Positions 1,392 to 35,119 of a stretch of 35,119 bases of DNA are shown here, one piece after another. The position numbers and the translations under genes were made by a program. The stretch is from IMG/VR virus record IMGVR_UViG_3300020518_000004, one strand, 5' to 3'. Origin of the DNA: a virus. The number at the start of each line of letters is the position of its first letter. The first letter of the stretch is position 1. The notes under the pieces are model-generated. The model was not told where the DNA came from, ran no database searches, and worked only from the letters and a program-made list of their open reading frames with translations.

Positions 1392-1667
1392 ATGGCAAAG
1401 GGTAAAAAAACAGGCGGTAGGCAGGCAGGCACCCCTAATCGGGCCACACAGGCTGCTAGGGAGGCGATAGCCGCTTTTGTAGACGGCAACGCAGACCGTC
1501 TCCAAGGGTGGCTAGATCAGATCGCAGAGGAGAAGGGGCCACAGGCCGCCTTTGATGCTTTCAGCACATTGCTGGAGTACCACGTTCCCAAACTCGCCCG
1601 CCAAGAGATCACAGGACAAGACAACGGCCCGGTCAAGGTACAGATCGGATGGATGGCTCCCGAATAA
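1392..1667 (+). CDS. Putative terminase small subunit
   Basis: 91 aa, lying immediately upstream of and overlapping TerL. Basic N-terminus MAKGKKTGGRQAGTPNRAT, typical of small phage DNA-recognition/TerS proteins. Confidence 0.5.
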   Translation: MAKGKKTGGRQAGTPNRATQAAREAIAAFVDGNADRLQGWLDQIAEEKGPQAAFDAFSTLLEYHVPKLARQEITGQDNGPVKVQIGWMAPE

Positions 1668-2989
1668 TCCTGCCCTATCGCCCACGCAAAGCGTTCCTGC
1701 CCTTTCACAACAGGACGCACCGCTGGGCGTGCCTTGTCGCACATAGACGCGCAGGCAAGACGGTCGCCGCTGTCAACGACATGATCCGTGCCGCTATCAC
1801 TTACCAAGGCCCATATGGTTTATTTGGATACGTTGCGCCATATCGGTCGCAGGCCAAAGCCGTGGCATGGCAATACTTCAAAGAGTTTGCCCAACCCATC
1901 ATCAGCAGCGTCAATGAGCAAGAACTGACGATAACGCTCATTAACAACAGCCAAATACGCCTTTACGGAGCCGAAACCGCAGACGCAATGCGCGGGCTGG
2001 GGTTCTCGGGGGTCTACATGGACGAATTCGGTGACTTTAAGCCCAGCGCATTTGGCAACGTCATACGCCCTGCCCTATCAGACAAGCAAGGTTGGGCTGT
2101 GTTTGGCGGTACACCGAAAGGCAAAAACCAATTCTGGGAAATCTACGAAACCGCACAGCGCATCCCAAATGAATGGTTCCTGTTGCGCCTCCCCGCCTCC
2201 ACCAGTGGGCTATTGCCGCAGAGCGAACTAGCGGCAGCCAAGGCGCAGTTGGCCGAGGATCAGTACCTACAGGAGTACGAATGCTCATTTGAAGCAGCCA
2301 TCCTCGGCGCTTTTTACGGCACAGAAATGCGTCAAGCGCAGGATCAAGGCCGTATTACACGCGTGCCGTATGACCCGAACTTGCCGACTTACACGGCGTT
2401 TGACTTAGGCTACCGCGACGACACGGCGGTATGGTTTTACCAGCCCTCACGCGGAGAAATACGCGTCATTGACTACTTTGCCATTTCGGGCGCTGACATC
2501 CACGACATTGCCGAACACGTAGAAAGCAAGCCTTACAAGTACGTCAAACACTTCCTGCCGCACGACGCACGGGCCAAGAGCCTACAGACAGGCCGCAGCA
2601 TCATTGAGCAATTAGCCGCGTATCTCGGCACCGCCAACCTTGCTGTTGTTCCCGACATCGGCGTGCAAAACGGCATTCAAGCCGTGCGCATGACGTTGCC
2701 GCGAGTGTGGTTTGACGGCGAGAAATGCCGCGATGGCATAGAGGCATTACGGCAGTATCAACGCGAGTACGACGAGGACAAGAAGGCGTTTCGGCAGTCC
2801 CCGCGTCACGATTGGACTAGCCACCCTAGTGACGCATTCCGTATGCTTGCGGTATCATGGCAGGAGATTTCTGACAAGCCCCCATCGGTAGAGGTAAAAC
2901 CGCTGCTGGTTGGGCCTGAAAACAAGGTCACGCTAAACGATATGTGGGCCGTTCACGACCGCACGGTTAGCAGGAGAGCAAGGATATGA
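1649..2989 (+). CDS. terL: Terminase large subunit
   Basis: Walker A HRRAGKT and Walker B VYMDEFG. C-terminal RNaseH-like nuclease motifs FDLGYRDDTAVWF and FLPHDA. 446 aa, followed by the portal module. Confidence 0.9.
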   Translation: MDGSRIILPYRPRKAFLPFHNRTHRWACLVAHRRAGKTVAAVNDMIRAAITYQGPYGLFGYVAPYRSQAKAVAWQYFKEFAQPIISSVNEQELTITLINNSQIRLYGAETADAMRGLGFSGVYMDEFGDFKPSAFGNVIRPALSDKQGWAVFGGTPKGKNQFWEIYETAQRIPNEWFLLRLPASTSGLLPQSELAAAKAQLAEDQYLQEYECSFEAAILGAFYGTEMRQAQDQGRITRVPYDPNLPTYTAFDLGYRDDTAVWFYQPSRGEIRVIDYFAISGADIHDIAEHVESKPYKYVKHFLPHDARAKSLQTGRSIIEQLAAYLGTANLAVVPDIGVQNGIQAVRMTLPRVWFDGEKCRDGIEALRQYQREYDEDKKAFRQSPRHDWTSHPSDAFRMLAVSWQEISDKPPSVEVKPLLVGPENKVTLNDMWAVHDRTVSRRARI

Positions 2990-3279
2990 GCGTTCAACAG
3001 CCAACTCGGATGAACTACGTTGCCGTTGGCGCAACGTCCACAACGGCCTTTGGCAGCCCCGGCGCGTACCTGCACCGCGTGGTGGTCAACGTCGCCAGCA
3101 ACACGGAAGCCTCGGCCATCGTGAAGGACGGCAGCACCACGTTGGTGTCGTTCCCCGCGACGACGGCAGCCGGTGTGTACTCGGTGGAACTTAACGTCGC
3201 CACGACGGGCCAGATTACGGCAACGTGCAGCCAAAACGCCTCCATGTCGGTCGTCGGCCTCTTTAGCACGTACGCCTAA
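2986..3279 (+). CDS. Hypothetical small protein (Ala/Thr/Ser/Val-rich)
   Basis: 97-aa ORF. ATGA overlap with the terL stop and TAATG overlap with the next ORF. Confidence 0.5.
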   Translation: MSVQQPTRMNYVAVGATSTTAFGSPGAYLHRVVVNVASNTEASAIVKDGSTTLVSFPATTAAGVYSVELNVATTGQITATCSQNASMSVVGLFSTYA

Positions 3280-3437
3280 TGAAAGCCGGCCTCTACGCCA
3301 ACATTCTTGCCAAGCAGGAGCGGCAGGCAAGACAGCGCCGTGAGGGTCGCCCCGTAGAGCGTACCCGCAAACCCGGCGAGAAAGGCGCACCGACTGCCGA
3401 AGCGTTTAAGCAATCAGCGAAAACGGCCAAGAAATGA
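3279..3437 (+). CDS. Small basic protein (52 aa, not in the supplied ORF track)
   Basis: Hand translation: MKAGLYANILAKQERQARQRREGRPVERTRKPGEKGAPTAEAFKQSAKTAKK. TAATG overlap upstream and ATGA overlap downstream. The RKPGEKGAPTA motif recurs in small phage proteins. Confidence 0.5.
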   Translation: MKAGLYANILAKQERQARQRREGRPVERTRKPGEKGAPTAEAFKQSAKTAKK

Positions 3438-3727
3438 CGGCAGCGTGGCAACGATCCGAAGGCAAAAACCCGAAAGGCGGTTTGAACGCCAAGGGTCGCG
3501 CCTCGTACAAAGCCGAGACGGGCGGGACGCTGAAGCCTCCCGTCAAATCGGGCGACAACCCACGCCGCGCATCGTTCCTCGCCCGCATGGGCAATATGCC
3601 GGGGCCGATGGAAAAGAATGGTGAACCGACGCGCCTTGCACTTGCTCTGAGAGCATGGGGCGCTGGTAGTAAGGCAGAGGCCAAATCAAAGGCCAAAGCC
3701 ATTAGCAAACGAAACGAGGGCAAGTAA
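3434..3727 (+). CDS. Small basic protein, DUF6321-like
   Basis: 97 aa. Motifs GKNPKGGLNAKGRASY, NPRRASFLARM and ALRAW match my memory of the DUF6321 family found near phage portal genes. Translationally coupled on both sides. Confidence 0.5.
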   Translation: MTAAWQRSEGKNPKGGLNAKGRASYKAETGGTLKPPVKSGDNPRRASFLARMGNMPGPMEKNGEPTRLALALRAWGAGSKAEAKSKAKAISKRNEGK

Positions 3728-5742
3728 TGGACGGACTGTTACAGCCAAAACTTGACCGCTATCTGCGCATCATCGGGCAGTACGACAACGAGTTTGCCAA
3801 GTGGATGGCGCGTACGAAGAAGATCATCAAGCGTTACCGCGACGATACGCGTGGGCAGACGCTGACCGAATCGGCCAAGTTTAATATCCTTTGGTCAAAC
3901 GTGCAGACCTTAAAGCCTGCCGTCTACGCCAAACTGCCGAAAGCCGACATTAGCCGCCGCTTTGGTGACAACGACCCCGTGGGCCGCGTGGCCGCACAGT
4001 TGGTTGAGCGTGCCATTGACTTTGAAATTGAGCATTACCCCGATTACCGCTCCACGATGGCGTATGCCGTAGAGGATCGGTTCCTCGGTGGACGCGGCAC
4101 CGCATGGGTGCGTTATGAACCGCACACTGCGCCGATTGGGTTAGAGGACGACGGCGTATCTATCACGCCTGACATTGAGCAGGGTGAAGGCGCACCGCCC
4201 AACCTTGAGCGTATTGAGTACGAATGCGCACCCGTGGATTACGTCCATTGGCGCGACTTTGGGCACTCTCCCGCCCGCACATGGGAAGAAGTCGGGCAGG
4301 TGTGGCGCTGGGTGTTTATGACCCGTGAGGCGCTGGTAGAGCGTTTTGGTGAGGACGTCGCACGCCGCATACCGCTAGACAGTGGCCCCGAGCCGCTCAA
4401 CGCCTACAACGAGAACAAGCGTCTCTACAACCGCGCAAAGATTTGTGAACTGTGGGACAAGGAGACTGAGAAGGTTTACTGGTTCAGCAAGGGAATGCCC
4501 GAGATCATTGACGAGCGTGATGACCCGCTCGGCCTTGAGGGCTTCTTCCCTTGCCCAAAACCGCTGTATGCGACGACGACCAGCGACACGCTCGTACCTG
4601 TCCCCGACTTTGTGCTGTACCAAGATCAGGCGATGGAGTTGGACATCCTGTCCGACCGCATTGATGGTTTGGTCAAAGCACTGCGCGTGCGTGGCGTCTA
4701 CGACTCCAGCCAACCCGCGCTGCAACGACTGATGACGGAGGGCGATAACAATGCTCTTATCCCGGTTGATAAATGGATGGCATTTAGTGAAAAGGGCGGT
4801 CTTAAAGGTAGTATTGACCTCCTCCCCCTTGACACACTCGCAAATGCGCTACTCCAGTGCTACCGCGCTAGAGAAGACATCAAGAGCCAAATCTACGAAA
4901 TCACGGGCATCTCGGACATCATCCGAGGTACGTCGTTCGCCAGCGAAACGGCCACCGCGCAGCAAATCAAAGGGCAATACGCAGGGCTAAGACTGCGTTC
5001 TATGCAAGAGGACGTTGCCCTCTTTGCCTCGGAACTGATACGCCTCAAGTCACAGGTCATGTGCATGAAGTATCAGCCCGAGACGATCCTTGCGTACGCT
5101 GCCGCACAGCAGATGACGCCCGCTGACCAGCAACTGATTCCGCAGGCGTTGGAACTGCTGCGTAACAAGCCGCTGCGTAACTTCCGCGTGGACATTGCCG
5201 CCGACAGCCTTGTGATGCTGGACGAAAACCAGAACAAGCAAGACCGTATGCAGTTCCTGCAAGCATTCGGTGGTTTCCTTGCCCAAGCGTTGCCGGTCGG
5301 TCAGGCCAGCCCGCAGATGGTGCCGATGATGATGGAACTGCTGCGCTTTGGTATGCAGGCGTTTAAGGCAGCCCGTCCGATTGAGGGCCAGATTGACGCG
5401 ACGCTCCAGCAACTTGCGCAGGCCGCCCAACAGCGGCCTCCAGAGGAGCAGGGCAAGCAAGCGGAGTTGCAAGCCAAGGGCCAATTGGAATCGTCCAAGA
5501 TGCAAATGCAGTCGGCGCTAAAGCAAGCCGAAATGCAGCACGCCATGCAAATGGAGCAGATGAAGAACCAAGCCAAGATGGCGATGGAACAGCAAAAGAT
5601 GAACTTTGAAGCGCAACTGAAGGCTGCCGAACTACAGAGCCAACAGGCTGCTGCCAAGTACAAGGCCGACGTTGACGCCCAGACCAAACTGATTATCGCC
5701 CAGATGGGCAAGACGATGCCTGAGCCGCCTTTTACGCAATGA
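3727..5742 (+). CDS. Portal protein with a C-terminal Gln/Met-rich coiled-coil (barrel-like) extension
   Basis: 671 aa, downstream of terL. N-terminal pattern KFNILWSNVQTLKPAVYAKLPKADISRRFGDNDPVGRVAAQLVERA is typical of podovirus portals. The C-terminal ~100 aa is heptad-like and Q/M/A/K-rich, as in the P22 portal barrel. Confidence 0.8.
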   Translation: MDGLLQPKLDRYLRIIGQYDNEFAKWMARTKKIIKRYRDDTRGQTLTESAKFNILWSNVQTLKPAVYAKLPKADISRRFGDNDPVGRVAAQLVERAIDFEIEHYPDYRSTMAYAVEDRFLGGRGTAWVRYEPHTAPIGLEDDGVSITPDIEQGEGAPPNLERIEYECAPVDYVHWRDFGHSPARTWEEVGQVWRWVFMTREALVERFGEDVARRIPLDSGPEPLNAYNENKRLYNRAKICELWDKETEKVYWFSKGMPEIIDERDDPLGLEGFFPCPKPLYATTTSDTLVPVPDFVLYQDQAMELDILSDRIDGLVKALRVRGVYDSSQPALQRLMTEGDNNALIPVDKWMAFSEKGGLKGSIDLLPLDTLANALLQCYRAREDIKSQIYEITGISDIIRGTSFASETATAQQIKGQYAGLRLRSMQEDVALFASELIRLKSQVMCMKYQPETILAYAAAQQMTPADQQLIPQALELLRNKPLRNFRVDIAADSLVMLDENQNKQDRMQFLQAFGGFLAQALPVGQASPQMVPMMMELLRFGMQAFKAARPIEGQIDATLQQLAQAAQQRPPEEQGKQAELQAKGQLESSKMQMQSALKQAEMQHAMQMEQMKNQAKMAMEQQKMNFEAQLKAAELQSQQAAAKYKADVDAQTKLIIAQMGKTMPEPPFTQ

Positions 5743-8179: not shown

Positions 8180-8662
8180 ATGACTGTTTCAACTAGTAAT
8201 GTCATTGGCGTTGCCCTTGGCTATGCCGACACCACGCAGCAGTTCAACCTCGGCACCTGCGTCAACCTTGACGACGGTGGACAGGCGATTTACGTGCAGG
8301 CGGCCTCTACCGTCTCGCAGTACGCCGCCGTGTCTGTCCGTGCCGACAACAAGGCTGTGCCGGTGACGACGACCAACGCTGCCGACTCCAAGCGGTTTGC
8401 GGTCGCGCAAGTCTCTATTGCCTCTGGCTCCTTTGGCTGGGTGCAATCGGGTGGCGTGATGCGCGTCAACCTTGCGGCGTCCTGCAACCCGGCTGTCCCG
8501 CTCTTTACGACGGCGACGGCTGGCGTTCTGGATGACGCCACGGTGTCGGGTGGCGGTGTCGGCCTTGTGGCCGGTATCGTTGCCACGGCAACCGCGTCGG
8601 GTGCCACGGCGATTACCTGCGTTGCGGGCTTCCCGCACGTTGTTGGGTACTCGGGCGCCTAA
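8180..8662 (+). CDS. Putative head decoration protein (DUF2190-like)
   Basis: 160 aa, Ala/Val/Gly/Thr-rich, directly after the capsid gene. The pattern FAVAQVSIASGSFGWVQSGGVMRVNLAA resembles DUF2190 decoration-like proteins. Confidence 0.45.
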   Translation: MTVSTSNVIGVALGYADTTQQFNLGTCVNLDDGGQAIYVQAASTVSQYAAVSVRADNKAVPVTTTNAADSKRFAVAQVSIASGSFGWVQSGGVMRVNLAASCNPAVPLFTTATAGVLDDATVSGGGVGLVAGIVATATASGATAITCVAGFPHVVGYSGA

Positions 8663-9438
8663 TGAAACCTCTGGAGATCACGGTACAAGCGGCGGGAACG
8701 CCTGAAGAACTATGTTCTAACATACGTTCTGCCCTTGCCCGTGGTCTACCAGAACTGACCCTCGCTCCCATCACGCACGATGCAACCATGGTGCTGGTGG
8801 CGAGCGGGTGGTCTATGCCCGACTACATTAACGACATCAAAGCGCACCGGAAGGCCGGTCATGTGATCGGTGCAATTAAGGGTGCGCATGACTTTTTGGT
8901 AGAGAACGGCGTAGAACCAGATTTTTGGGTCAACCTTGACCCCCGCGACCGCACCAACGGTATCAAGCACAAGAACGACCGCACGCTGTACCTTGTTGCC
9001 TCGCGCTGCCCGCCCTCCACGTTTGATTACCTTCAAGGTAAGCGCGTGATGGTGTGGCACTCATGGGCTGAAGGCCCAGAAATGGACGCCATGGGGCCGG
9101 GTAAATTGGCCATCGGTGGCGGCACGACCTCGGGTCTGCGTGCCATCAACATCGGCTATATCATGGGCTTCCGTAAGTTTTTCCTGTACGGCTACGACTC
9201 GTGCAACAGCCCGGATGGACGTAAGCGGTTTACGGGCGAGTTGCCGGGGCTAACGGTAGACGTATGGGTGGGCGGCGCAGACGGCAAGAAATTTAACTGC
9301 AACGCCGCGATGGCCCAGCAGGCCAACGAATTCCAGAAATTGTTTGAGGTGATGCCCGACCTGCAAATAGAGGTCATCGGGCCGGGGCTGATTGCTGAAA
9401 TCATGCGTTGCCGCCGCAACATGGCGAAGGCGGCCTAA
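8662..9438 (+). CDS. DUF115 (MptE/Maf-like) domain protein, putative glycosyltransferase
   Basis: LVASGWS (equivalent of the GxGPS turn), GVEPDFWVNLDP, and GGGTTSGLRAINIGYIMGFRKFFLYGYDSC match the DUF115 core. TAATG coupling on both sides within the head module. Confidence 0.6.
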   Translation: MKPLEITVQAAGTPEELCSNIRSALARGLPELTLAPITHDATMVLVASGWSMPDYINDIKAHRKAGHVIGAIKGAHDFLVENGVEPDFWVNLDPRDRTNGIKHKNDRTLYLVASRCPPSTFDYLQGKRVMVWHSWAEGPEMDAMGPGKLAIGGGTTSGLRAINIGYIMGFRKFFLYGYDSCNSPDGRKRFTGELPGLTVDVWVGGADGKKFNCNAAMAQQANEFQKLFEVMPDLQIEVIGPGLIAEIMRCRRNMAKAA

Positions 9439-13311: not shown

Positions 13312-13739
13312 TCAGCGGGCCGGAAATCGGCCATTGGGTAACGGCGCAAACCGACGGGTCATTTTGGCCCGAGCGGGCAACGGCCATCGGACTTAAAAAG
13401 GACGGTCAGATTGTCGCCGGTACGGTTTACGAGATGTGGAACGGCAAATCGGTCGTTTGCCACATTGCTTGGAACCGCGTAACCCCTGCCTACGTCGCCG
13501 CCGTCTACGATTATGCGTACAACGTCTGCGGAGTTGATAAGATAATAGGGCCAATCAGCAGTAACCATACCCGGGCGCTGAAACTGGTCACAAAAATGGG
13601 GTTTTCGGAGGAGGCGCGGATCAAACAGGCCGCGCACGACGCCGGGGACATCGTATTTATGACTCAGACACCTGAAAAGTGTCGTTATTTGGAGCCTCGG
13701 TATGGGCAAAAGATCACCAGCACCGCCGCCAACACCTGA
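13296..13739 (+). CDS. GNAT-family N-acetyltransferase embedded in the tail/internal-protein module
   Basis: Core IVAGTVYEMWNGKSVVCHIAW...NHTRALKLVTKMGFSEEARI resembles the GNAT beta4-alpha3 and alpha4 region. The start is uncertain (ATG at 13296 or 13263). It overlaps both neighbouring genes. Confidence 0.55.
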   Translation: MGWNIVSGPEIGHWVTAQTDGSFWPERATAIGLKKDGQIVAGTVYEMWNGKSVVCHIAWNRVTPAYVAAVYDYAYNVCGVDKIIGPISSNHTRALKLVTKMGFSEEARIKQAAHDAGDIVFMTQTPEKCRYLEPRYGQKITSTAANT

Positions 13740-16700
13740 TTACGCCGCCATTGCGCGGCAGCAAGGTCAGGAGAACATAGAAGCCGCTCGTCAGTCGGCT
13801 TATATGTCCAATCCCAACGTCTACACGCCTACGGCGCAGCAGACGGTAACGTGGCAGCGCACGCCGCAAATCAATCAGGCTGCGTATGACCAAGCAATGG
13901 CTGATTATCAAGCCAACGTGCTGCGTGATCCTGATATGGCGTCAGGAGCAGCACCTGATATTGCGCAATTCACGACTTACGTTGAGCAACCGACCATCCG
14001 ACAGGAGTTGGTTGGCCCTGCCAAAGACATTTTTGGCACGCAGCAGCAAGCCGAACAGGCGATGGCAAATTTGGGACTGCGTGAAATCGGCGACCTGTCG
14101 TCGTTTCTTAACCAAAACTTTGCCGCCCAACTTCCTGCCATCCAGACCCAACTTGGTCAGTACGGACAGGTCGCAGGCGCACCCAACCTTGCTGGTTACG
14201 GCACGGCTGGCGCACCCGGTGCGGGGGAATTTGGCGCGGTATCAGGCGCACCTAGCGCGGCGCAGTATGGCCCTCGCTCAACCTTTACTGCCGAAACCAT
14301 GCCGGGAATGTATGCACCTGTTGGGCAGGCGCAACAAGGCATCGGCGCGTTTGGTGACGTTGCGCAGGCTCCCGACCTTACTGGCATGGGTCAGGCGGGC
14401 GGTAATGTCGCACTGACAGGTTTTACAGGCGGCCCCTCGGGCGGCCAGTTTGGTATGGCAGGCGGTGGGCCAGCCGCGTACAACCTCGGTCAACTTGACC
14501 TCTCAGGCGTCGGCGGTGTCGGCGGTGGCCCCGCTATGGGTCAGTACGGCATGGCACAAGCCGGCCCCGGCGGCGTGCAGTTTGGTGGCCTAGACCTTTC
14601 GGGGCTTGGCACCGCACAAGGATTTGGCAATCTCGGTCAGTACGCCGCAGGCGCTGGCCCCAATGCCCCGAATGTCCAAGGAGCCGACTTCTCACGCGTT
14701 GGGCAGATTGGCCCCGGCGTTGGCTACGGTCAGTTTGGAATGGCCGGTGGCGGCCCTGCTGCGGGCCTGTACGGCATGGCCGGTGCTGGCCCAGCGGGCG
14801 TGCAGTTTGGCGGCCTTAACCTTGCAGGAATGCAAGGCGTACAAGGCGGCGTTGGGCAGTTTGGTCAAGCACAAGGCGGCCCCGCAGGGTTGAATCTTGG
14901 CGGGTTTGATACCTCACGCCTCGGTGAAATCGCAGGTGGCCCGTCAGCCGATCAGTTTGGTCGTGCCATCGGTGGCCCTGCCGCACCGTCACTAGAAGAA
15001 AACCTTAACCTTTCAGGCGTCGGCGATGTTGCCCGCAACGTGCAAGAGGGCCGATTTGGCTACGCACGCGGTGAGTTAGCAACACCAGAACTTCAACGGC
15101 AGTTGGCAACGCAAGGGCTTGCCGCCATGCCAGTCAACGCGGGAATGACGGCGCAAAACGCCATCATGTCGCGCCTTGAGCCGCAATTGCAGCGTGAACG
15201 TGCGCAGTTGGAGCAGCGCCTTGTCAACCAAGGCTTGCGACCGGGCGGTGAGGCGTACAACGCAGAGATGGAACTGCAAGCGCAACGTGAAAACGATTTG
15301 CGCACGCAAGCGGCATTGCAAGGCATCAGCCTAGACGCCTCCATGCGTCAGCAGGGACTTGCCGAACAACAGACCCTTGCCGACTTTGCCAACCAAGCCG
15401 CACTCGCGCAGTTTGGAGCAGGCGCACAAGGCTTGGGACTCTACAACGAAGCCCTCGCGCAAAACTTCCAGCAGTCGCTTGCCGCACAGTCTGCGCAGAA
15501 CATGGCGCAACAGCAGGCATTCCAGCAGCGCCTACAGGCGGGTCAGTTTGGCCGTGAAGCGCAGATGGCGTCCTTTGGTATGGGCCAACAGGCACAACAA
15601 GCGGTCAACCAAGCGCAACAGCAGAACTTTGAGCGTGCGTTGGCTGCCCAACAAGCGCAAAACGCCGCACAAGCACAAGGTTTTGGGCAAGAAATGGCCG
15701 CGCAGCAGTTTGGCCGTGAGGGTGCGCTGGCAGGATTTGAGACGCAACAAACAGCACAGCAAGCGCAGAACGCAGCAATTGCGCAAAACACGCAATTGGC
15801 GTTGCAGTCAGGTCAGTTTGCAAACCAAGCGCAGGCACAAGACTTTGCACAACGTCTCGCCGCTGGAGAGTTTGGACAAGAAGCACAATTGGCTTCTTTC
15901 CAGACGGGTCAAGCGGCACAAGAGGCGATCAACCGCGCCATTGCTCAGAACTTTGCACAAGGTCAAGCCTCACAGCAGTTGCAAAACCAAGCGGTGCAGC
16001 AAAACTTGCAGGGTGCATTGGCGACCGAGGAAGCCCAACGTGCCGCGCAAGCGCAACAGTTTGGTCAAGCCGCGACCCAAGCAGAACTTGGCGCACAATT
16101 GACCGGCCAGCAGTTTGCGATGGGTCAACAGGCGCAGCAGGCTGCAAACCAAGCACAAGCGCAAAACTATCAGCAAGCCCTTGCGGCTGCGCAGATGGGC
16201 AACGCCGCACAACAACAGAATTTCTTGCAACGTGTGGCCGCAGGCGAGTTTGGCCGAGAGGCACAACTTGCGACGTTCCAAACGGGACAGCAGGCGACAC
16301 AAGCGCAGAACCAAGCCGCCCAGCAAAACTACCAGCAAGCGTTGGCGTTGCAGCAGATGCAAAACCAAGCGCAACAGCAGCGTTATGGTCAAGCGGTTGG
16401 CGCAGGAGAGTTTAACCGTCAGGCGTTACTTGCACAGTTTGGCATGGGGCAACAAGCCCAGCAGGCACAAAATCAAGCCATGGCGCAGAACTTTGCGCAG
16501 GCTCAAGCCGCTGCGCAGATGCAGAACCAAGCAGCGCAAGGTGCGTTTGGCCAGCAAGTCACGGCACAGGAACTGCGCAATCAAGCCTTGGGTCAAAACC
16601 AACAGGCCGCGTTGCAGCAGCAACAAGCCGCCATGCAAGCCCAGCAGCAGCGTTACGCGCAGCAGATGGGCCTTGGACAGTTTGCGAACCAAGCCGTTGC

Positions 16701-17307
16701 ACAGAACCAGCAACAAGCATTGGCCGCTTATCAAGCCAATTTGGCGCGTCAGCAGCAGGGCTTCCAGCAAGCCGGTGCGCAGGCTGGATTCTTCAACGAA
16801 GCACAGGCACAGGCATACCAGCGTGCGATGGCCGAACAAGCCGCCGCCAACGCTGCACAGCAGCAACGCTTTGGTCAGGGCATGGACATTCGTGGCTTGC
16901 AGAACGCCGCGATTTTGCAGAACCAGCAGGCCGCACTTACGCAGCAAGCCGCCGCAAATGCCGCGCAACAGCAGCAGTACAACCAAGCGATGGGTGCAGG
17001 CACGTTCGGCAACCAAGCCATCCAGCAAGCGTTGCAGCAGCAGGTTGCACTACGCAATCAGCCGCTCAACGAAATCTCTGCGTTGCTCTCGGGATCGCAG
17101 GTACAGATGCCGCAGTTCCAAGGCTACAGCGGCGTCACGGTTGCACCAACACCGTATCTACAAGCCATGCAGGCGCAAGATGCCGCAAATATCCAGCGTT
17201 ACGGTATTGCTGCAAACCAAGCCGCAAGCGGTATGTCAGGTCTATATGGGTTGGCAGGCGCAGTCGCAGGCGCACCGAGCGGTGGATTTTTAAGTGGTTT
17301 ATTTTAA
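13702..17307 (+). CDS. Giant low-complexity Gln/Ala/Gly repeat protein, putative internal virion/ejection protein
   Basis: 1201-aa ORF with a GGAG ribosome-binding site. It sits where podoviruses encode internal core proteins. Two repeat regimes are visible (see findings). Confidence 0.8.
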   Translation: MGKRSPAPPPTPDYAAIARQQGQENIEAARQSAYMSNPNVYTPTAQQTVTWQRTPQINQAAYDQAMADYQANVLRDPDMASGAAPDIAQFTTYVEQPTIRQELVGPAKDIFGTQQQAEQAMANLGLREIGDLSSFLNQNFAAQLPAIQTQLGQYGQVAGAPNLAGYGTAGAPGAGEFGAVSGAPSAAQYGPRSTFTAETMPGMYAPVGQAQQGIGAFGDVAQAPDLTGMGQAGGNVALTGFTGGPSGGQFGMAGGGPAAYNLGQLDLSGVGGVGGGPAMGQYGMAQAGPGGVQFGGLDLSGLGTAQGFGNLGQYAAGAGPNAPNVQGADFSRVGQIGPGVGYGQFGMAGGGPAAGLYGMAGAGPAGVQFGGLNLAGMQGVQGGVGQFGQAQGGPAGLNLGGFDTSRLGEIAGGPSADQFGRAIGGPAAPSLEENLNLSGVGDVARNVQEGRFGYARGELATPELQRQLATQGLAAMPVNAGMTAQNAIMSRLEPQLQRERAQLEQRLVNQGLRPGGEAYNAEMELQAQRENDLRTQAALQGISLDASMRQQGLAEQQTLADFANQAALAQFGAGAQGLGLYNEALAQNFQQSLAAQSAQNMAQQQAFQQRLQAGQFGREAQMASFGMGQQAQQAVNQAQQQNFERALAAQQAQNAAQAQGFGQEMAAQQFGREGALAGFETQQTAQQAQNAAIAQNTQLALQSGQFANQAQAQDFAQRLAAGEFGQEAQLASFQTGQAAQEAINRAIAQNFAQGQASQQLQNQAVQQNLQGALATEEAQRAAQAQQFGQAATQAELGAQLTGQQFAMGQQAQQAANQAQAQNYQQALAAAQMGNAAQQQNFLQRVAAGEFGREAQLATFQTGQQATQAQNQAAQQNYQQALALQQMQNQAQQQRYGQAVGAGEFNRQALLAQFGMGQQAQQAQNQAMAQNFAQAQAAAQMQNQAAQGAFGQQVTAQELRNQALGQNQQAALQQQQAAMQAQQQRYAQQMGLGQFANQAVAQNQQQALAAYQANLARQQQGFQQAGAQAGFFNEAQAQAYQRAMAEQAAANAAQQQRFGQGMDIRGLQNAAILQNQQAALTQQAAANAAQQQQYNQAMGAGTFGNQAIQQALQQQVALRNQPLNEISALLSGSQVQMPQFQGYSGVTVAPTPYLQAMQAQDAANIQRYGIAANQAASGMSGLYGLAGAVAGAPSGGFLSGLF
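15460..16485 (+). repeat. Phased coding tandem repeat: units of 162 nt (54 aa) starting at 15460, 15622, 15784, 15946 (one 216-nt unit), 16162 and 16324. Degenerate continuation to about 17040.
   Basis: Each unit opens with a CAA/CAG-AAC-(TTY/TAY/ACG) codon triplet (QNF/QNY/QNT) at exactly those coordinates. Consensus: QNFxxALAAQQxQNxAQxQxFxQxxAAGEFGREAQLAxFxTGQQAxQAxNQA. Confidence 0.85.
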
Positions 17308-25460: not shown

Positions 25461-25657
25461 TTGACGGAACGTGGTATCGCATCAAGGGGTATACCCACGC
25501 CGAATGTTGCGACTGTGCGTTAGTCCACAAAGAACAGTACCGACTTGTGGACGGCCAACTGGAATGGATGGCTGAACGTGACGATGAGGCCACCAAGGCC
25601 CGCCGAAAGGAACTCGGCATCAAGGTTACCCGCAATGCCAAAGCACACAAACGATGA
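25424..25657 (+). CDS. Hypothetical small Cys-containing protein
   Basis: 77-aa ORF overlapping the endolysin 3' end by 37 nt and the next gene by 23 nt. Contains HAECCDCALVH. Confidence 0.4.
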   Translation: MAKDNRYKAVQIIDGTWYRIKGYTHAECCDCALVHKEQYRLVDGQLEWMAERDDEATKARRKELGIKVTRNAKAHKR

Positions 25658-26630
25658 TGAATTTTTAGAACTTTGGAGTCGGCTAAAAAGCCCTTCAAAG
25701 GTTGCGAAATACCTAAAAATGGATGTGAGGTCGGTGCATTTGCGCCGCCGATCATTAGAAGCCCGCTACGGGGTTGCATTACCGTCTGCAATAAAATACG
25801 ACCAAGGCGGGGAAATGACCCAAAAAGGCAACCGTGCTAACGAACTTGCCGCCGAACGCGCTAGGAAGTACGAGCGTGACATGGTGGATGAGGTCAAAGA
25901 CGGGGTGGTGCTAATTGCCTCAGACTGCCACTACTGGCCCGGTATTGTGACCGAGGCACACCAAGCCCTCTGCCGGTTAGCCAAGGAACTTAGCCCGAAA
26001 ATGGTCATCTTGAACGGTGACGTATTGGACGGTGCGCGGATTAGCCGCCACGCCCGCATCATGTGGGAAAAACAGCCCACGGTGAAGGACGAAATTGCTG
26101 CGGTGCAGGATCGGGTTGCAGAGATTGAACGTGCGGCAGGACGCGCCAAACTGATCCGCACCATCGGCAACCACGACGCCCGCTTTGAGAACTATTTGTC
26201 CACTCGTGTCGGTGAGTTTGAAGAAATGACCGGCATGACGCTGCTGGACTACCTACCGAGATGGCGGGCGGGATGGTGCGTGCATCTAAACCAAAGCACC
26301 GAAGGGTGGGTCACTGTCCGTCACCGACCTGTATCCGGTGGGATACACGCCGCCTATAACAGCACCCTACGCTCGGGCGTCCACTATGCCCACGGACACC
26401 TCCACAAGTTGCAGGTGACACCGTGGGGCGATTACAGGGGCCGTCGGTACGGTATAGACACCGGCACCCTCGCAGAACCGGAAGGGCCGCAGTTCAACTA
26501 TACGGAGGCAGGGCCGCTCAATTGGGCGTCAGGCTTTGCCGTGTTGACCTTCCACAAGGGCTTTTTGCTCCAGCCCGAACTTTGCGTCGTAGAACGCGGT
26601 GCCGCATGGTTTCGGGGAAGGAAAATTTAA
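25635..26630 (+). CDS. Calcineurin-like metallophosphoesterase with an N-terminal HTH-like domain
   Basis: Motifs ASDCH, NGDVLDG, GNHD and HGHLH, in canonical order. The N-terminal ~60 aa (SKVAKYLKMDVRSVHLRRRSLE) looks like an HTH. Start taken at ATG 25635 (the ORF-track start is TTG). Confidence 0.7.
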   Translation: MPKHTNDDEFLELWSRLKSPSKVAKYLKMDVRSVHLRRRSLEARYGVALPSAIKYDQGGEMTQKGNRANELAAERARKYERDMVDEVKDGVVLIASDCHYWPGIVTEAHQALCRLAKELSPKMVILNGDVLDGARISRHARIMWEKQPTVKDEIAAVQDRVAEIERAAGRAKLIRTIGNHDARFENYLSTRVGEFEEMTGMTLLDYLPRWRAGWCVHLNQSTEGWVTVRHRPVSGGIHAAYNSTLRSGVHYAHGHLHKLQVTPWGDYRGRRYGIDTGTLAEPEGPQFNYTEAGPLNWASGFAVLTFHKGFLLQPELCVVERGAAWFRGRKI

Positions 26631-26783: not shown

Positions 26784-26857
26784 TGGCTGAAGGGGCTGGG
26801 ATTGAACCAACATTCACGGAGTCAAAGTCCGTTGTCCTACCATTAGACGACCCTTCA
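26784..26857 (-). tRNA. tRNA-Gln, anticodon UUG, with encoded CCA
   Basis: Hand-folded 74-nt cloverleaf: acceptor TGAAGGG/CCCTTCA; D arm GTCT-AATGGTA-GGAC; anticodon arm ACGGA-CTTTGAC-TCCGT; variable loop GAAT; T arm GTTGG-TTCAATC-CCAGC; discriminator G; CCA. The U1-A72 pair and G73 are the bacterial tRNA-Gln hallmarks. Confidence 0.9.
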
Positions 26858-27052
26858 ACGACTTAAATGCGCAACCTCGGCCTGTAGCGTCTTAATTTCA
26901 CGCTCCAGCACCTCGGCAATCTCCCACATTCCACGCTGACGGATTTCTGCCAACGCAAATTGTACCTTTTGCGCCTGACTTTGGCCGTACCCCCACGGCG
27001 CACGCTGTAACTCGGTTTTCCACGCCCCCGGCGGGCTGTCGTTATCAATCAC
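26855..27052 (-). CDS. Hypothetical protein
   Basis: 65-aa ORF with a GTG start. Its TGA stop is the first 3 nt of the tRNA. No homology recognised. Confidence 0.35.
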   Translation of the reverse strand: MIDNDSPPGAWKTELQRAPWGYGQSQAQKVQFALAEIRQRGMWEIAEVLEREIKTLQAEVAHLSR

Positions 27053-27152: not shown

Positions 27153-27710
27153 TTAGGAGCCGCATAAACCCTCCACGCTATAGTTGGTACTCGGTGACTT
27201 CCAATCCCTCGGTACGTCGCCCGTAATCCATGACGGGTCTTTCCACAGCAATCGGTTATTTGGGTAGGCAATCCATGGGCCGGTGTCTAGCGCGATGATG
27301 TGGTGGTCTTTGCTCTGGTCAGGCACCTCTGCCCAACCGCCATTGGCCCAAAACACACTAAACAAATACGTCCCCGCACGCATGACCTTATCGCGGCCCA
27401 GCGCCTCAACGCGGTGATTGCGGAGCATCTGCATCTCGCGCACCTCGCAATGCCTACTGAACGAGTCCCACCACACAGACAGGTTAAGCGATAGCGGTTC
27501 ACAGGGTTTGGAGCAAAGCGCGTGGATTGGGATTCTGGCCCATTGTGCGCCGTTCTCTAACATCACTTGGAACATCGGCACTCGGGCAGGTTCAGCGCGG
27601 AACCCAAACACGGTACAGAGCGTAAACTTGCCATGCCCGCTCTGCTGGTCGTACAGGAACTCGTTACGGACGTAAGCCGTGGTGTACGGGGTGTCTACGA
27701 CAAAACTCAC
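27153..27710 (-). CDS. Conserved phage hypothetical protein
   Basis: 185 aa, GTG start in a GTGA overlap with the upstream gene. C-terminal motif IAYPNNRLLWKDPSW seen in other phage proteins of unknown function. Confidence 0.55.
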   Translation of the reverse strand: MSFVVDTPYTTAYVRNEFLYDQQSGHGKFTLCTVFGFRAEPARVPMFQVMLENGAQWARIPIHALCSKPCEPLSLNLSVWWDSFSRHCEVREMQMLRNHRVEALGRDKVMRAGTYLFSVFWANGGWAEVPDQSKDHHIIALDTGPWIAYPNNRLLWKDPSWITGDVPRDWKSPSTNYSVEGLCGS

Positions 27711-27994: not shown

Positions 27995-28391
27995 ACACCG
28001 GCTCCGGTATCACAATGCCCATATCCGCGCACCGCGACTCTAAAAACAATAAGTAATCGCTAAACTCTTGCTTGGTCAGCGCCGAGGATCGTTTAAGCGG
28101 CCGCATACGCTTACGCCCAAACCCCTCCAGCGTTTCCCAGCCGAAACATTCACCAAGGAAGTATTCGTGCAGGTCATCGCGTGTCCATCCCGCTAACGCC
28201 TCACCGCCGCCCTCCAAGATCGCGGGGTAACACACACCCCACAGAAATGCGTTTTGCTGCTGCGTGCGGGGCTTTTTCCATTCCACAATCTCTATGCACC
28301 ACGCTCGGTCAGCCGACAACCCCTGCACCATGCGTGCGGCTGCTGTCGCTAACTGCTCGGGCGTCGTGCCTTTAGGAAATATGCGCTTCAC
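27981..28391 (-). CDS. ninB: NinB/Orf-family recombination mediator
   Basis: KKPRTQQQNAFLWGVCY motif (RS..QN..lW core of lambda NinB). 136 aa. GTG start in a GTGA overlap. Confidence 0.65.
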   Translation of the reverse strand: MKRIFPKGTTPEQLATAAARMVQGLSADRAWCIEIVEWKKPRTQQQNAFLWGVCYPAILEGGGEALAGWTRDDLHEYFLGECFGWETLEGFGRKRMRPLKRSSALTKQEFSDYLLFLESRCADMGIVIPEPVYESA

Positions 28392-29050
28392 CGACTAGCC
28401 TCTAGCCATTCCTTGCCGTACTCAACGTCTACCCAATCCTTAAACCACGGGCCGCCACGGGTGAAATGTACGGCGATGGGATTCGGGCAATGGTCGCGCG
28501 TGTACCAACCTTCCAGATAGTTCCACGCTATCGGTAGAGAGCCAATGGACTCGTCTTTTAGCCATTGGAAACGGTGCAGGAACATTCCACTTTCTCTGTT
28601 CACGACATCGGGTGTCAACGCCTTGACCTCGGGGTGCGAACAGTTCATAAACATGAACGATGACCAGTTTTTTCGTGGATACTGATGTTGCGCCTTGTTG
28701 TCCATCTTGACCTTCTCAAACGGCCTGTAATCGTGCTGTACCACAAAGCACGCTTTTGCCCCGTCGGCGTAGTCCATCAGTCCCGCAATATCCCCCCGCA
28801 AAAGAAAATCGCAGTCCATAAACACAGCCCAGCCGTCGTACCCGGCGAGGTATGGGGTCAAGAAGCGGGTAAACGAAAACTCCGTAGACGACAACGGATC
28901 AGTCTCCCGCCAGTAAAGGCCACGCTCCCGAAGTTCTGACTGTTTGATGGGTTGTATGTCTAGCGGGATAGAGGCGTGCTTGAGCAGGCTCTTGCGGCAA
29001 ACTTGATACGCAATGTCCTCGCGGCTGTCCCAACCGATAAATACCTTCAC
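28388..29050 (-). CDS. GT-A fold glycosyltransferase, GT8-like (DxD = DCD)
   Basis: FSFTRFLTPYLAGYDGWAVFMDCDFLLRGDIAGL is the classic GT8 nucleotide-sugar/DxD region. 220 aa. GTG start in a GTGA overlap. Confidence 0.65.
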   Translation of the reverse strand: MKVFIGWDSREDIAYQVCRKSLLKHASIPLDIQPIKQSELRERGLYWRETDPLSSTEFSFTRFLTPYLAGYDGWAVFMDCDFLLRGDIAGLMDYADGAKACFVVQHDYRPFEKVKMDNKAQHQYPRKNWSSFMFMNCSHPEVKALTPDVVNRESGMFLHRFQWLKDESIGSLPIAWNYLEGWYTRDHCPNPIAVHFTRGGPWFKDWVDVEYGKEWLEASR

Positions 29051-31864: not shown

Positions 31865-31892
31865 ATGATAGCGGGCTTTACAGCCTTGTCAA
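31865..31892 (-). promoter_or_regulatory. Putative leftward early promoter, TTGACA-N16-TATCAT
   Basis: The reverse complement of 31887-31892 is TTGACA. The reverse complement of 31865-31870 is TATCAT. The predicted start site gives a ~28-nt leader containing the ribosome-binding site. Confidence 0.45.
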
Positions 31893-32480: not shown

Positions 32481-32847
32481 TGAGACGTTATACCCAAAGA
32501 GTGAAGTCAGTCATAAAGACCTCAACCTACAGCACCAAGAAAAAAAAATACTAGATCATTGGGAAGAAAGTTTTAAGGTAAGCCCTATCCAGCGTCTAAA
32601 GTACCTTGACGCACTGTTAGCCCGCACAACCGATACCGAACGCACCGAAAGCATCAAGTGGAGGGTGGCAGAGTTGCTCCGTGAGGTGGATGCGGGTCAG
32701 GTGCTAGGTGAGCCGCAGTTGGTGACGATGGTGCGGTATCTGTTTGGTGAGAAAGGGCTAAAGCGGTTGCGTGAAAAAGTTAAATCACAACACTCGGATG
32801 TGGTGGAGGATATGGCTCATCCGGTGCATCAACGAGGCAAGGTATGA
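32473..32847 (+). CDS. Hypothetical protein
   Basis: 124 aa with a GAGGTG ribosome-binding site. Helical and charged. Confidence 0.55.
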   Translation: MGDETLYPKSEVSHKDLNLQHQEKKILDHWEESFKVSPIQRLKYLDALLARTTDTERTESIKWRVAELLREVDAGQVLGEPQLVTMVRYLFGEKGLKRLREKVKSQHSDVVEDMAHPVHQRGKV

Positions 32848-33581
32848 ACCCGTCAGCAGCCCTGTTTCACAAGGATTACCAAAAGTTCAGTCCCGAAAAA
32901 AGAAGGGAAATACACGACACCTTGCAGACCCTTATGGGGTTACTCGGCGCAAACGTCGGAGGACATTGCACCTTCCACGATGACCTCTTTGTGTGGTTTC
33001 GGAACCTATTTTTTACGCATGACCCGAGGTTTAACGAAGCGTGTGGGAGCCTCAACTTTGTGCTACGCGCACGGCTCTGGCGGCTTTACACCCTATGTTG
33101 GGCGTGTGAGCAGGCATTACACGTTGACGGTGCCATCGTAGACATTGGGACGTACGACGGTCGTGCGCTGGAAGTCGTGTTGCGGTATCAGCGTGAGCAA
33201 CGAGAGGTGTATGCGTACGACTATTTCGCCGAACCTCCCGAGGAGAGCAAGAAATCAGAGCATGGCCCCGACCTTTGCGAGCAAGTGACCGAGCGTTTAT
33301 CGCCGTGGAACGCAAAAGTGTATCTCGGTGATATACACGCTACTGCGCACACGCTCCCCGATCAGATTGCCTTTTGCCAGATTGACCTTAACGACGCAGA
33401 GGCCGAAAGGTTTGTGTTCCCGTTGGTGTACCAAAGGCTATCACCCGGTGGCATAGTCATCTTTGACGACTACGGCTTTGCTCGGTATCGTGAGTCAGCG
33501 GTGACGCACCAAAAGTTCCTAGAAGGCAAAGAGCAAATCTTGGAAATGCCGACCGGCCAAGGATTATTGATTAAGGCATGA
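32844..33581 (+). CDS. Class I SAM-dependent methyltransferase, TylF/MycF (macrocin/sugar O-methyltransferase)-like
   Basis: GAIVDIGTYDGRALEV (SAM motif I) and IAFCQIDLNDAEAERFVFPLVYQRLSPGGIVIFDDYG, the TylF signature with metal-binding Asp residues. Confidence 0.65.
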   Translation: MNPSAALFHKDYQKFSPEKRREIHDTLQTLMGLLGANVGGHCTFHDDLFVWFRNLFFTHDPRFNEACGSLNFVLRARLWRLYTLCWACEQALHVDGAIVDIGTYDGRALEVVLRYQREQREVYAYDYFAEPPEESKKSEHGPDLCEQVTERLSPWNAKVYLGDIHATAHTLPDQIAFCQIDLNDAEAERFVFPLVYQRLSPGGIVIFDDYGFARYRESAVTHQKFLEGKEQILEMPTGQGLLIKA

Positions 33582-33901
33582 GACACGCAGCACGCCGAGA
33601 CGGGAACGATGCGGTCATCACACAGGCACTGCGTGCGCAAGGGTTTACCGTCTACGACTACGGCAAGGCAGGCGAAGGCATACCCGATAAACTCGTCACT
33701 CGGGCGCTACCCGACGGCGTAGAATGGGTGTGCTGGGTAGAGATCAAGATGCCGAAGGGCAAGTTACGGGAAGGCCAAGAGCGGTTCCGTAACATCTTTG
33801 CGCCTCGCGGTGAGTATTACGTCGCCCGTGACGCACAGGACGCGGTGCGGGAACTTTACGAGCGGTATTTGCTCTCTATCAAACCGGAGCAGTACCGATA
33901 A
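33578..33901 (+). CDS. VRR-NUC domain nuclease (PD-(D/E)XK, Holliday-junction-resolvase-like)
   Basis: GIPDKLV...WVEIKMPKGKLREGQERF fits the VRR-NUC D...E-x-K...Q core. 107 aa. ATGA coupling. Confidence 0.65.
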   Translation: MRHAARRDGNDAVITQALRAQGFTVYDYGKAGEGIPDKLVTRALPDGVEWVCWVEIKMPKGKLREGQERFRNIFAPRGEYYVARDAQDAVRELYERYLLSIKPEQYR

Positions 33902-34541
33902 GCGCCTTTCGCGCACCCTTGTAATGAACGATGGCCGGGTGGGGATGCTGGGGTAAGTACTCTGGCAGGCAGGCAAAGTGATACTCGGGCAGCGTTACCT
34001 CGGTCTGCCGGCAATACTCTCGCAAAACCTCTTGATCGCCGTACCACCGCCAGAATTTCTCGGGTAACGCCTCAAACATCTCGGCCATATCCTCCCACGG
34101 CCCTGCATCACGGGTCACCGTGGCACAACCGACAAACGGGTACACTTCATCCAGCGTCTTACCCGTGTATTCGGAAAAGTCCAAACCCCGCTGACGAGGG
34201 TTGAATAGCGCATCTCGGTTGAATGACCGCCGACACGGCACGCAAACCTCATCCAGAACGAGCGTGGACGGCTTTATGGGGGCTTTCACAACCATATCGG
34301 TGTCAAGGTATAGGGCAGGTTCGTCTAGCCCTAATCGCGCAAAGGCGGCAAGACGCCAGTGCATCAGGAACTCCCGGTCGCCCTCGGTCGGGTACGCCCA
34401 TGTGACACCCTCTACAGTCGCGGTCACACGATCCGTCACTTGGATGATTTCAGCACCGGGGTTAAAGGCGCGGAGGGAAGCGACCATCCGAGTCGGCCAT
34501 TCCAGATCATCGCCCACATGGAAAAACACGAACGTAGACAT
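33879..34541 (-). CDS. GT-A type glycosyltransferase (DxD = DTD), GT32/sugar-binding-region-like
   Basis: FHVGDD...WRLAAFARLGLDEPALYLDTDMVV resembles the DXD-containing sugar-binding region. 220 aa. No Shine-Dalgarno sequence. Confidence 0.5.
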   Translation of the reverse strand: MSTFVFFHVGDDLEWPTRMVASLRAFNPGAEIIQVTDRVTATVEGVTWAYPTEGDREFLMHWRLAAFARLGLDEPALYLDTDMVVKAPIKPSTLVLDEVCVPCRRSFNRDALFNPRQRGLDFSEYTGKTLDEVYPFVGCATVTRDAGPWEDMAEMFEALPEKFWRWYGDQEVLREYCRQTEVTLPEYHFACLPEYLPQHPHPAIVHYKGARKALIGTAPV

Positions 34542-34905: not shown

Positions 34906-35119
34906 GCCACAAAGACGCGGCTGAATTCGTTGGGGTGTTGTTGCATTCGGCAACGGCCACGCATTTTCTGCATCTGCAAACGGCCAGTTACGCTGCCCAC
35001 AAGGCACTCGGCCACTACTACGAAAACATCGTGGACTTGGCCGACAAGTACGCGGAAGCCTACCAAGGGCACTACGGCATTATCCCTCTCGCCGACTATC
35101 CCGAAGGCTTCAAGGTACA
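34902..35119 (+). CDS. 5' part of the ferritin/Dps-like (DUF5856-like) gene; continues at base 2 after circular closure
   Basis: ATGA overlap with the upstream stop. MSHKDAAEFVGVLLHSATATHFLHLQTASYAAHKALGHYYENIVDLADKY... Confidence 0.6.
   Translation, partial: MSHKDAAEFVGVLLHSATATHFLHLQTASYAAHKALGHYYENIVDLADKYAEAYQGHYGIIPLADYPEGFKV
35021..35119. repeat. Second copy of the 99-nt terminal duplication
   Basis: Identical to 1-99. Confidence 0.95.

Follow-up and report, generated by a model that had tools for sequence, protein, structure and literature searches.

The optional tRNA-Gln(UUG) gene of a small freshwater podophage: a possible association with CAA use in late genes and splitting by an HNH cassette in relatives

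Introduction

Why phages carry tRNA genes is debated, codon supply being set against escape from host defence. The codon-compensation model for phage tRNAs is attributed to Bailly-Bechet 2007 in a passage of PMC10264068, and codon compensation by supply of late genes also belongs to the background of PMC13015707. Here the question is raised by a tRNA-Gln(UUG) gene in the genome of an uncultured small freshwater podophage. Is this tRNA tied to one Gln-rich virion protein, as the initial annotation had proposed, does it serve late genes in general, or does it answer to something other than codon demand? The clade carries just one tRNA, optional but fixed in identity, and is represented by many public genomes, which makes a clean comparative test possible.

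Results

Genome of the podophage

The window (the whole stretch of DNA analysed, 35,119 nucleotides) begins and ends with an exact 99-nt repeat (bases 1-99 equal bases 35021-35119) and therefore represents a complete circular assembly of 35,020 bp. Rightward genes encode terminase, portal, coat, tail tube and hub, a GNAT protein, ejection proteins, tail fibre and lysis functions; leftward genes encode Sak, exonuclease, SSB, NinB and YbcO. Stop-codon recoding was ruled out, since the genes are open under table 11 with all three stops in use. Cultured relatives (Myxococcus phage Mx8, Stenotrophomonas phage BUCT555, and Brucella, Rhizobium and Sulfitobacter phages) are less than 60% identical, and coat-protein matches to near relatives lie in MAGs from many unrelated phyla, MAGs that are probably misbinned. 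Neither route singled out a host.

Several other features of the genome were recorded. An LPD23 domain protein (PF18838) is encoded at 250-1281, upstream of the terminase genes. A possible cluster of modification enzymes (28388-29050, 32844-33581, 33879-34541 and 8662-9438) comprises a SAM methyltransferase (PF13578), an MptE-like protein (PF01973) and two unassigned ORFs that may be glycosyltransferase-like, judging by their appearance. Coat-protein matches in L248:7201-8466, L253:5138-6403, L263 and L264 exceed the usual length by about 240 nt, so that the coat gene of some relatives may contain an insertion or an additional domain.

An intact tRNA-Gln(UUG) gene ends the leftward gene run

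The tRNA gene and its surroundings consist of the following features.

26784..26857, minus strand: intact tRNA-Gln(UUG) with encoded CCA, supported by ARAGORN, Rfam RF00005, fold and covariation
25545..26630, plus strand: metallophosphoesterase gene, convergent on the tRNA
26855..27052, minus strand: 65-aa ORF with 7 Gln, whose TGA stop is the first three bases of the tRNA
27153..27710, minus strand: phrog_3704 gene, conserved anchor on the upstream side of the tRNA site
31865..31892, minus strand: sigma-70-like promoter candidate TTGACA-16-TATCAT (11/12 match), putative head of the leftward recombination/replication operon, of which the tRNA is the last element

ARAGORN called tRNA-Gln(TTG) as the sole tRNA of the window, matches at low threshold being set aside as noise. 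The only Rfam match in the window was RF00005 at the same place (60.3 bits against a threshold of 29 bits, E 7.8e-11). These two results bear out the annotation of a canonical tRNA-Gln reading CAA as the only RNA gene. The transcript folds into a cloverleaf in which no non-standard pair was flagged. Together with the encoded CCA, this is not the picture of a pseudogene.

As had been annotated, the tRNA gene is the final element of the leftward Sak/exonuclease/SSB/NinB/YbcO run; it overlaps the stop of the preceding ORF and opposes the convergent metallophosphoesterase gene. Early transcription of the tRNA is suggested by this gene content and by the single sigma-70-like candidate. Such sites numbered four in the window against 4.6 expected by chance. 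A reading of the 65-aa ORF as a Gln-sensing leader was not convincing, as no such ORF was detected upstream of the tRNA in 38 of 55 tRNA-bearing relatives. Where the ORF was present its Gln content was 6.3% versus 4.1% (p=0.046, uncorrected).

The bacterial Gln identity set, as defined for E. coli GlnRS, consists of G73, U1-A72, G2-C71, G3-C70, G10, U34-U35-G36, A37 and U38; of these, U1-A72 and a YUG anticodon are required on both the GlnRS and the GluRS/GatCAB route (PMC9976931). The window tRNA has U1-A72, G2-C71, A3-U70, G10, A37, C38 and G73. Hence it carries the U1-A72 pair and UUG anticodon needed on both routes, with U1-A72 found in 16 of 16 aligned variants, and it departs from the full E. 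coli set at A3-U70 and C38. These two differences count against an E. coli-type substrate, not against a tRNA-Gln. Among the variants, G, U or A is found at position 73, and either G-C or C-G at pair 2-71. U1-A72 is constant, but position 73 and the pairs 2-71 and 3-70 are not; for this reason the host may use the indirect GluRS/GatCAB route.

The tRNA is optional in the clade and variable in body, yet fixed in identity

Across 63 related loci covering the site, a tRNA-Gln was found at the same position in 48 (47 with UUG, one with CUG) and no tRNA in 15. The gene is thus optional, being missing from about a quarter of the relatives; where a tRNA is present at the site its amino-acid identity is always Gln and no other. 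Close relatives can lack it: in L082 and L083 the neighbouring gene is 99% identical to that of the window and the tRNA is absent. The tRNA bodies are very different from each other, with 11 anticodon arms among 55 tRNAs and variation spread beyond these arms across all four stems. In an alignment of 16 variant bodies, 99.7% of stem cells were paired and two-sided changes were seen at 16 of 21 pairs. Given this pairing, the two-sided changes and the invariant U1-A72, the gene is under selection as a Gln tRNA where it is present.

Some relatives deviate in single features. The lone tRNA-Gln(CUG), L105:4014-4087, combines a window-type acceptor stem and D arm with a swapped anticodon arm, and L141 has the same arm with UUG. 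The tRNA-Gln of L103 / G014 has C at position 33 (loop CCTTGAC) in place of the conserved U33. A viral contig (L171:138-6166) carries six tRNA-Thr genes and two tRNA-Gln(UUG) genes.

An optional gene of fixed identity with many anticodon arms could also arise if the tRNA stood in for a host tRNA-Gln(UUG) that an anticodon nuclease or another tRNase had destroyed. Its presence would then follow nuclease-bearing host strains, and any shift in CAA use would be a side effect or a host effect. The chimeras L105 and L141, where the window-type acceptor stem is retained under a new anticodon arm, are in line with this explanation, and tRNase escape has been published for other phages (PMC10264068, PMC13096335). 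Against it, variation is not confined to the anticodon arm, and the UUG anticodon itself is kept in all but one of the 48 tRNAs. We consider replacement of a destroyed host tRNA to be conceivable, though doubtful.

tRNA genes are common attachment sites, and a divergent promoter region lies near 31.9 kb, so that the gene might be an attP copy through which the phage integrates into a host tRNA-Gln gene. No integrase was found among the scanned ORFs of the window; the tRNA has its full length, and its 3' half differs greatly from one relative to another. An attachment site is therefore most improbable.

Dedication of the tRNA to the Gln-rich virion protein is not supported

Three reading frames had been annotated as heavily Gln-rich, that of the portal at its C-terminus.

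13702..17307, plus strand: 1201-aa protein with Gly-rich, then Gln/Ala-rich repeats (54-aa repeat unit), phrog_6121
3727..5742, plus strand: portal, with 21.5% Gln in its last 121 aa
17320..17718, plus strand: 132-aa ORF with 9.8% Gln (13/132; 5 CAA, 8 CAG)

The first contains 247 Gln (20.6%). The 1201-aa protein is a probable P22 gp7-like ejection protein, P22_gp7 being its nearest named atlas cluster (at 0.91, a lead). It has only 2 Lys, and in L001-L080 its length varies through expansion of the Gly-rich and 54-aa Gln/Ala repeats. In many relatives the protein has an extra C-terminal segment (…GYKMVNYG), missing from the window copy, which may be an intramolecular chaperone domain, judging by resemblance.

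That the tRNA is retained for the codon demand of this one protein was the central proposal of the initial annotation, and several observations speak for it. The gene holds 33% of the 741 Gln codons of the genome, in runs up to QQQQ, and the only tRNA of the clade is always Gln. Moreover, the complete short-protein relatives G026 and G027 have no tRNA, and in the first 27 records every Gln-rich gene with at least 90 CAA was accompanied by the tRNA.

Codon counts within the window did not agree with this proposal. The largest gene, described as CAA-rich, has 117 CAA to 130 CAG (CAA share 0.47), compared to 232:222 (0.51) in the rest of the genome (Fisher p=0.38). In the stretch 15361-15640, where the two codons had been read as about equally used, 10 CAA and 16 CAG were counted in frame. 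Late genes likewise were not enriched in CAA over the other genes of the window (CAA:CAG 308:314 versus 56:63, p=0.69).

Comparison across relatives gave the same answer. In a phylogenetic generalized least squares (PGLS) analysis of 42 records with the whole gene, which also took GC3 into account, presence of the tRNA was not associated with length (p=0.81), Gln count (p=0.44), CAA count (p=0.11) or CAA share (p=0.73) of the Gln-rich gene. Long proteins occur without the tRNA in G006 (complete; 1207 aa, 238 Gln), in G059 and in G020 (1040 aa; 119 CAA, a higher count than in the window; tRNA site covered), and short proteins occur with it in G045 (404 aa) and G021. The threshold of 90 CAA was broken by G020 once more genomes were added.

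P22-like copy numbers are 415 for coat, about 250 for scaffold and 12-30 for ejection proteins. With these copy numbers assumed, the rough need for CAA per virion would be 1,400-3,500 for the 1201-aa protein, 3,300 for coat and 4,000 for scaffold; the 1201-aa protein would thus not be the dominant consumer. Taken together, these results do not support dedication of the tRNA to one virion protein, which we regard as decidedly unlikely.

Carriers of the tRNA may use more CAA in head and tail genes

CAA use outside the Gln-rich gene was analysed by PGLS in 48 long records with known tRNA status (30 with, 18 without), using a tree and GC3 as covariate; six gains or losses fall on the tree, a single tree being an approximation for these mosaic genomes. 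The CAA share was higher in tRNA carriers (+0.053, t=3.85, p=0.0004), and CAA ranked first of 50 codon tests. The control codons GAA (p=0.34) and AAA (p=0.32) were not shifted. The increase was found in head and tail genes (+0.056, p=0.002; p=0.07 under a looser filter), and no CAA rise was found in early genes (-0.02, p=0.34). A shift in head and tail genes that is absent from early genes agrees with early production and late use of the tRNA. The late proteome contains 7.7% Gln, versus 3.8% in other genes.

The size and robustness of the effect were limited. In the first 33 records the same effect held up in every leave-one-out run, with all five sister contrasts in one direction; it fell to p=0.075 when five low-CAA genomes without tRNA were dropped. 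Raw medians of the CAA share differed by a small gap (0.465 with and 0.435 without the tRNA). Among 51 fragments around the tRNA site, which cover the early, lysis and tail-fibre region, no difference was seen (0.469 versus 0.467). One clade of 13 genomes has the tRNA and low CAA, and tests on independent pairs had too few pairs to reach significance. A general easing of CAA decoding in late genes by the tRNA has moderate support from these data, and we judge it about as probable as its opposite. Differences between hosts could yield the same CAA pattern.

An HNH cassette with a spare tRNA-Gln splits the gene in relatives

The cassette is not present in the window. Two segments of the window tRNA correspond to what is lost and what remains in relatives that carry it.

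26821..26833, minus strand: 13 nt comprising the 5' strand of the anticodon stem and the loop, missing in invaded relatives (G012/L429; also L137, L463, L482); putative homing target region
26834..26857, minus strand: acceptor 5' strand, followed by the D arm (motif CGTCTA..GGTAGGAC); both persist as a 5' remnant in relatives with the cassette, whose replacement tRNAs differ in the D arm

In G012 (L429:316-1017) the window-type tRNA is split, and nucleotides 1-24 are followed by about 10 nt, a complete and different tRNA-Gln(UUG), a 186-aa HNH gene and nucleotides 38-74. The 13 nt that correspond to window positions 26833-26821 are lost. Three types of resident tRNA have been invaded in this clade: the window type (G012, L137, L463, L482), a second (L094, L096, L098, L467) and a third (L468, L469-471). 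L474-475 also carry a spare tRNA-Gln(UUG) and HNH cassette in a resident tRNA-Gln gene. Across loci the HNH gene is 184-195 aa long and the anticodon arm of the resident tRNA is removed. The window-type tRNA is intact, i.e. the allele is empty, in the window, G002, G015 and others.

In the HNH ORF the pattern CxxC...DH...N...CxxC is visible, and Pfam matches to HNH_3 (E 3.7e-5) and HNH (E 3.8e-4) lie just below the gathering score. The broken targets share the D-arm motif CGTCTA..GG.AGGA, which the spare tRNAs lack. L146 retains the spare tRNA and the 3' remnant with the HNH gene gone, and five further loci have a spare-type tRNA alone, as expected if the nuclease decays after spreading. From this arrangement we infer that the cassette probably moves by cut-and-replace homing, the HNH protein cutting the resident gene. 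The window would then hold an un-invaded target allele. For this clade, an intron was rejected because 13 nt of the anticodon arm have been deleted and splicing would therefore not yield an intact tRNA.

HNH homologues at 42-54% identity split tRNA-Gln genes in unrelated phages. Such cases were seen at L472:2477-3167 (L472/473), L477:1850-2600, L478:310-1060, L485:1135-1895 and L486:810-1560, three of them inside the anticodon loop; in L486 the HNH gene comes first and the spare tRNA second. Beside more distant HNH homologues, three to five consecutive tRNA-Gln genes (UUG and CUG, some of 87-88 nt) are found at L480:1545-1941, L487:707-1185 and L483:2054-2875. Our literature search, of incomplete coverage, found no endonuclease cassette inside a phage tRNA-Gln gene.

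The cassette bears on two of the alternative explanations. By removing or cutting into the anticodon arm it could itself select for arm diversity, which weakens the case for replacement of a nuclease-destroyed host tRNA. A locus that is an endonuclease target could also carry a near-neutral passenger, with little effect on fitness, which persists through recombination and HNH-driven gene conversion while CAA differences reflect lineage or host. Loss of the tRNA in the close relatives L082 and L083 and the small number of independent contrasts agree with a passenger. The strong compensatory change in all stems does not, nor does the arrival of a same-identity spare that is retained after loss of HNH. 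Such a spare, carried by the invader and kept, indicates that losing the tRNA carries a cost in those lineages; it argues that the tRNA is useful, without indicating for what reason. We therefore hold a near-neutral passenger to be unlikely.

Discussion

The window's own feature is an ordinary phage tRNA. We propose that it is a functional accessory gene with a general rather than a dedicated benefit, an account for which we see the balance as level. The tRNA would be the last gene transcribed in the leftward early operon and, judging by U1-A72, the anticodon and G73, would be charged by the host. It would enlarge the pool of Gln-tRNA(UUG) during late expression. Its benefit may be spread over the Gln-rich late proteome, and the tRNA may be the cause of the somewhat higher CAA use in head and tail genes of the lineages that keep it. 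The gene is repeatedly swapped for other tRNA-Gln bodies. In one route, documented by the insertions in relatives, a cassette of spare tRNA-Gln and HNH gene lands in the anticodon arm, after which the HNH gene decays and the spare stays.

On this first pass the results lean towards a small effect on late genes that is specific to the codon, and away from a link to a single extreme protein. For its part, the cassette of the relatives offers a defined pair of enzyme and target that is assayable without phage culture. A broader reading joins both results: the clade may be a natural gain-and-loss experiment in which one phage tRNA shifts the use of precisely its own codon in late structural genes, and in which the tRNA is so important that an HNH nuclease cutting its gene spreads only when carrying a cut-resistant spare tRNA-Gln, the window gene being its target. 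This joint reading is put forward tentatively, with the probability somewhat against it.

As in the codon-compensation model, presence of the tRNA may go with higher use of its codon in structural genes; in contrast to the studies behind that model, gain and loss of one tRNA was followed within one clade, rather than phage against host. The tRNA-Gln(UUG) of T5-like coliphages (T5 tRNAQ1, AJ604531) is likewise a canonical class I tRNA with UUG anticodon and encoded CCA, and is 75-80% identical to that of the window. It sits in a large cluster, whereas the window tRNA is the only one of a 35-kb podophage. The 1201-aa protein resembles P22 gp7-like proteins (phrog_6121) in where its gene lies, behind those for tail hub and GNAT and ahead of further ejection genes, with profile and atlas matches as leads; it differs in its enlargement by Gly-rich and Gln/Ala-rich repeats, with lengths of 304-1541 aa across relatives.

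Phage endonuclease genes tied to tRNA genes are known from T4/T6 and T5. SegB of T4/T6 is a free-standing GIY-YIG endonuclease of the tRNA cluster, which cuts within tRNA genes and spreads with flanking tRNAs (PMC2330249, PMC13096335), and F-Tfl HNH endonucleases of the T5 tRNA cluster receive a mention in PMC2330249. SegB lies between intact tRNA genes and recognises a T-arm motif, and the T5 HNH genes also lie among intact tRNAs. The cassette of the relatives, unlike these, sits inside a broken tRNA-Gln gene and brings one complete spare of the same identity. Endonuclease insertions in fungal mitochondria bring a new 3' part of the invaded gene, as in Allomyces macrogynus atp6 and Ophiostoma rps3 (PMC4019555). 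There, too, the inserting element supplies sequence that preserves the function of the disrupted gene, in the form of a partial protein-coding copy fused in frame; the cassette described here supplies a whole, divergent tRNA gene.
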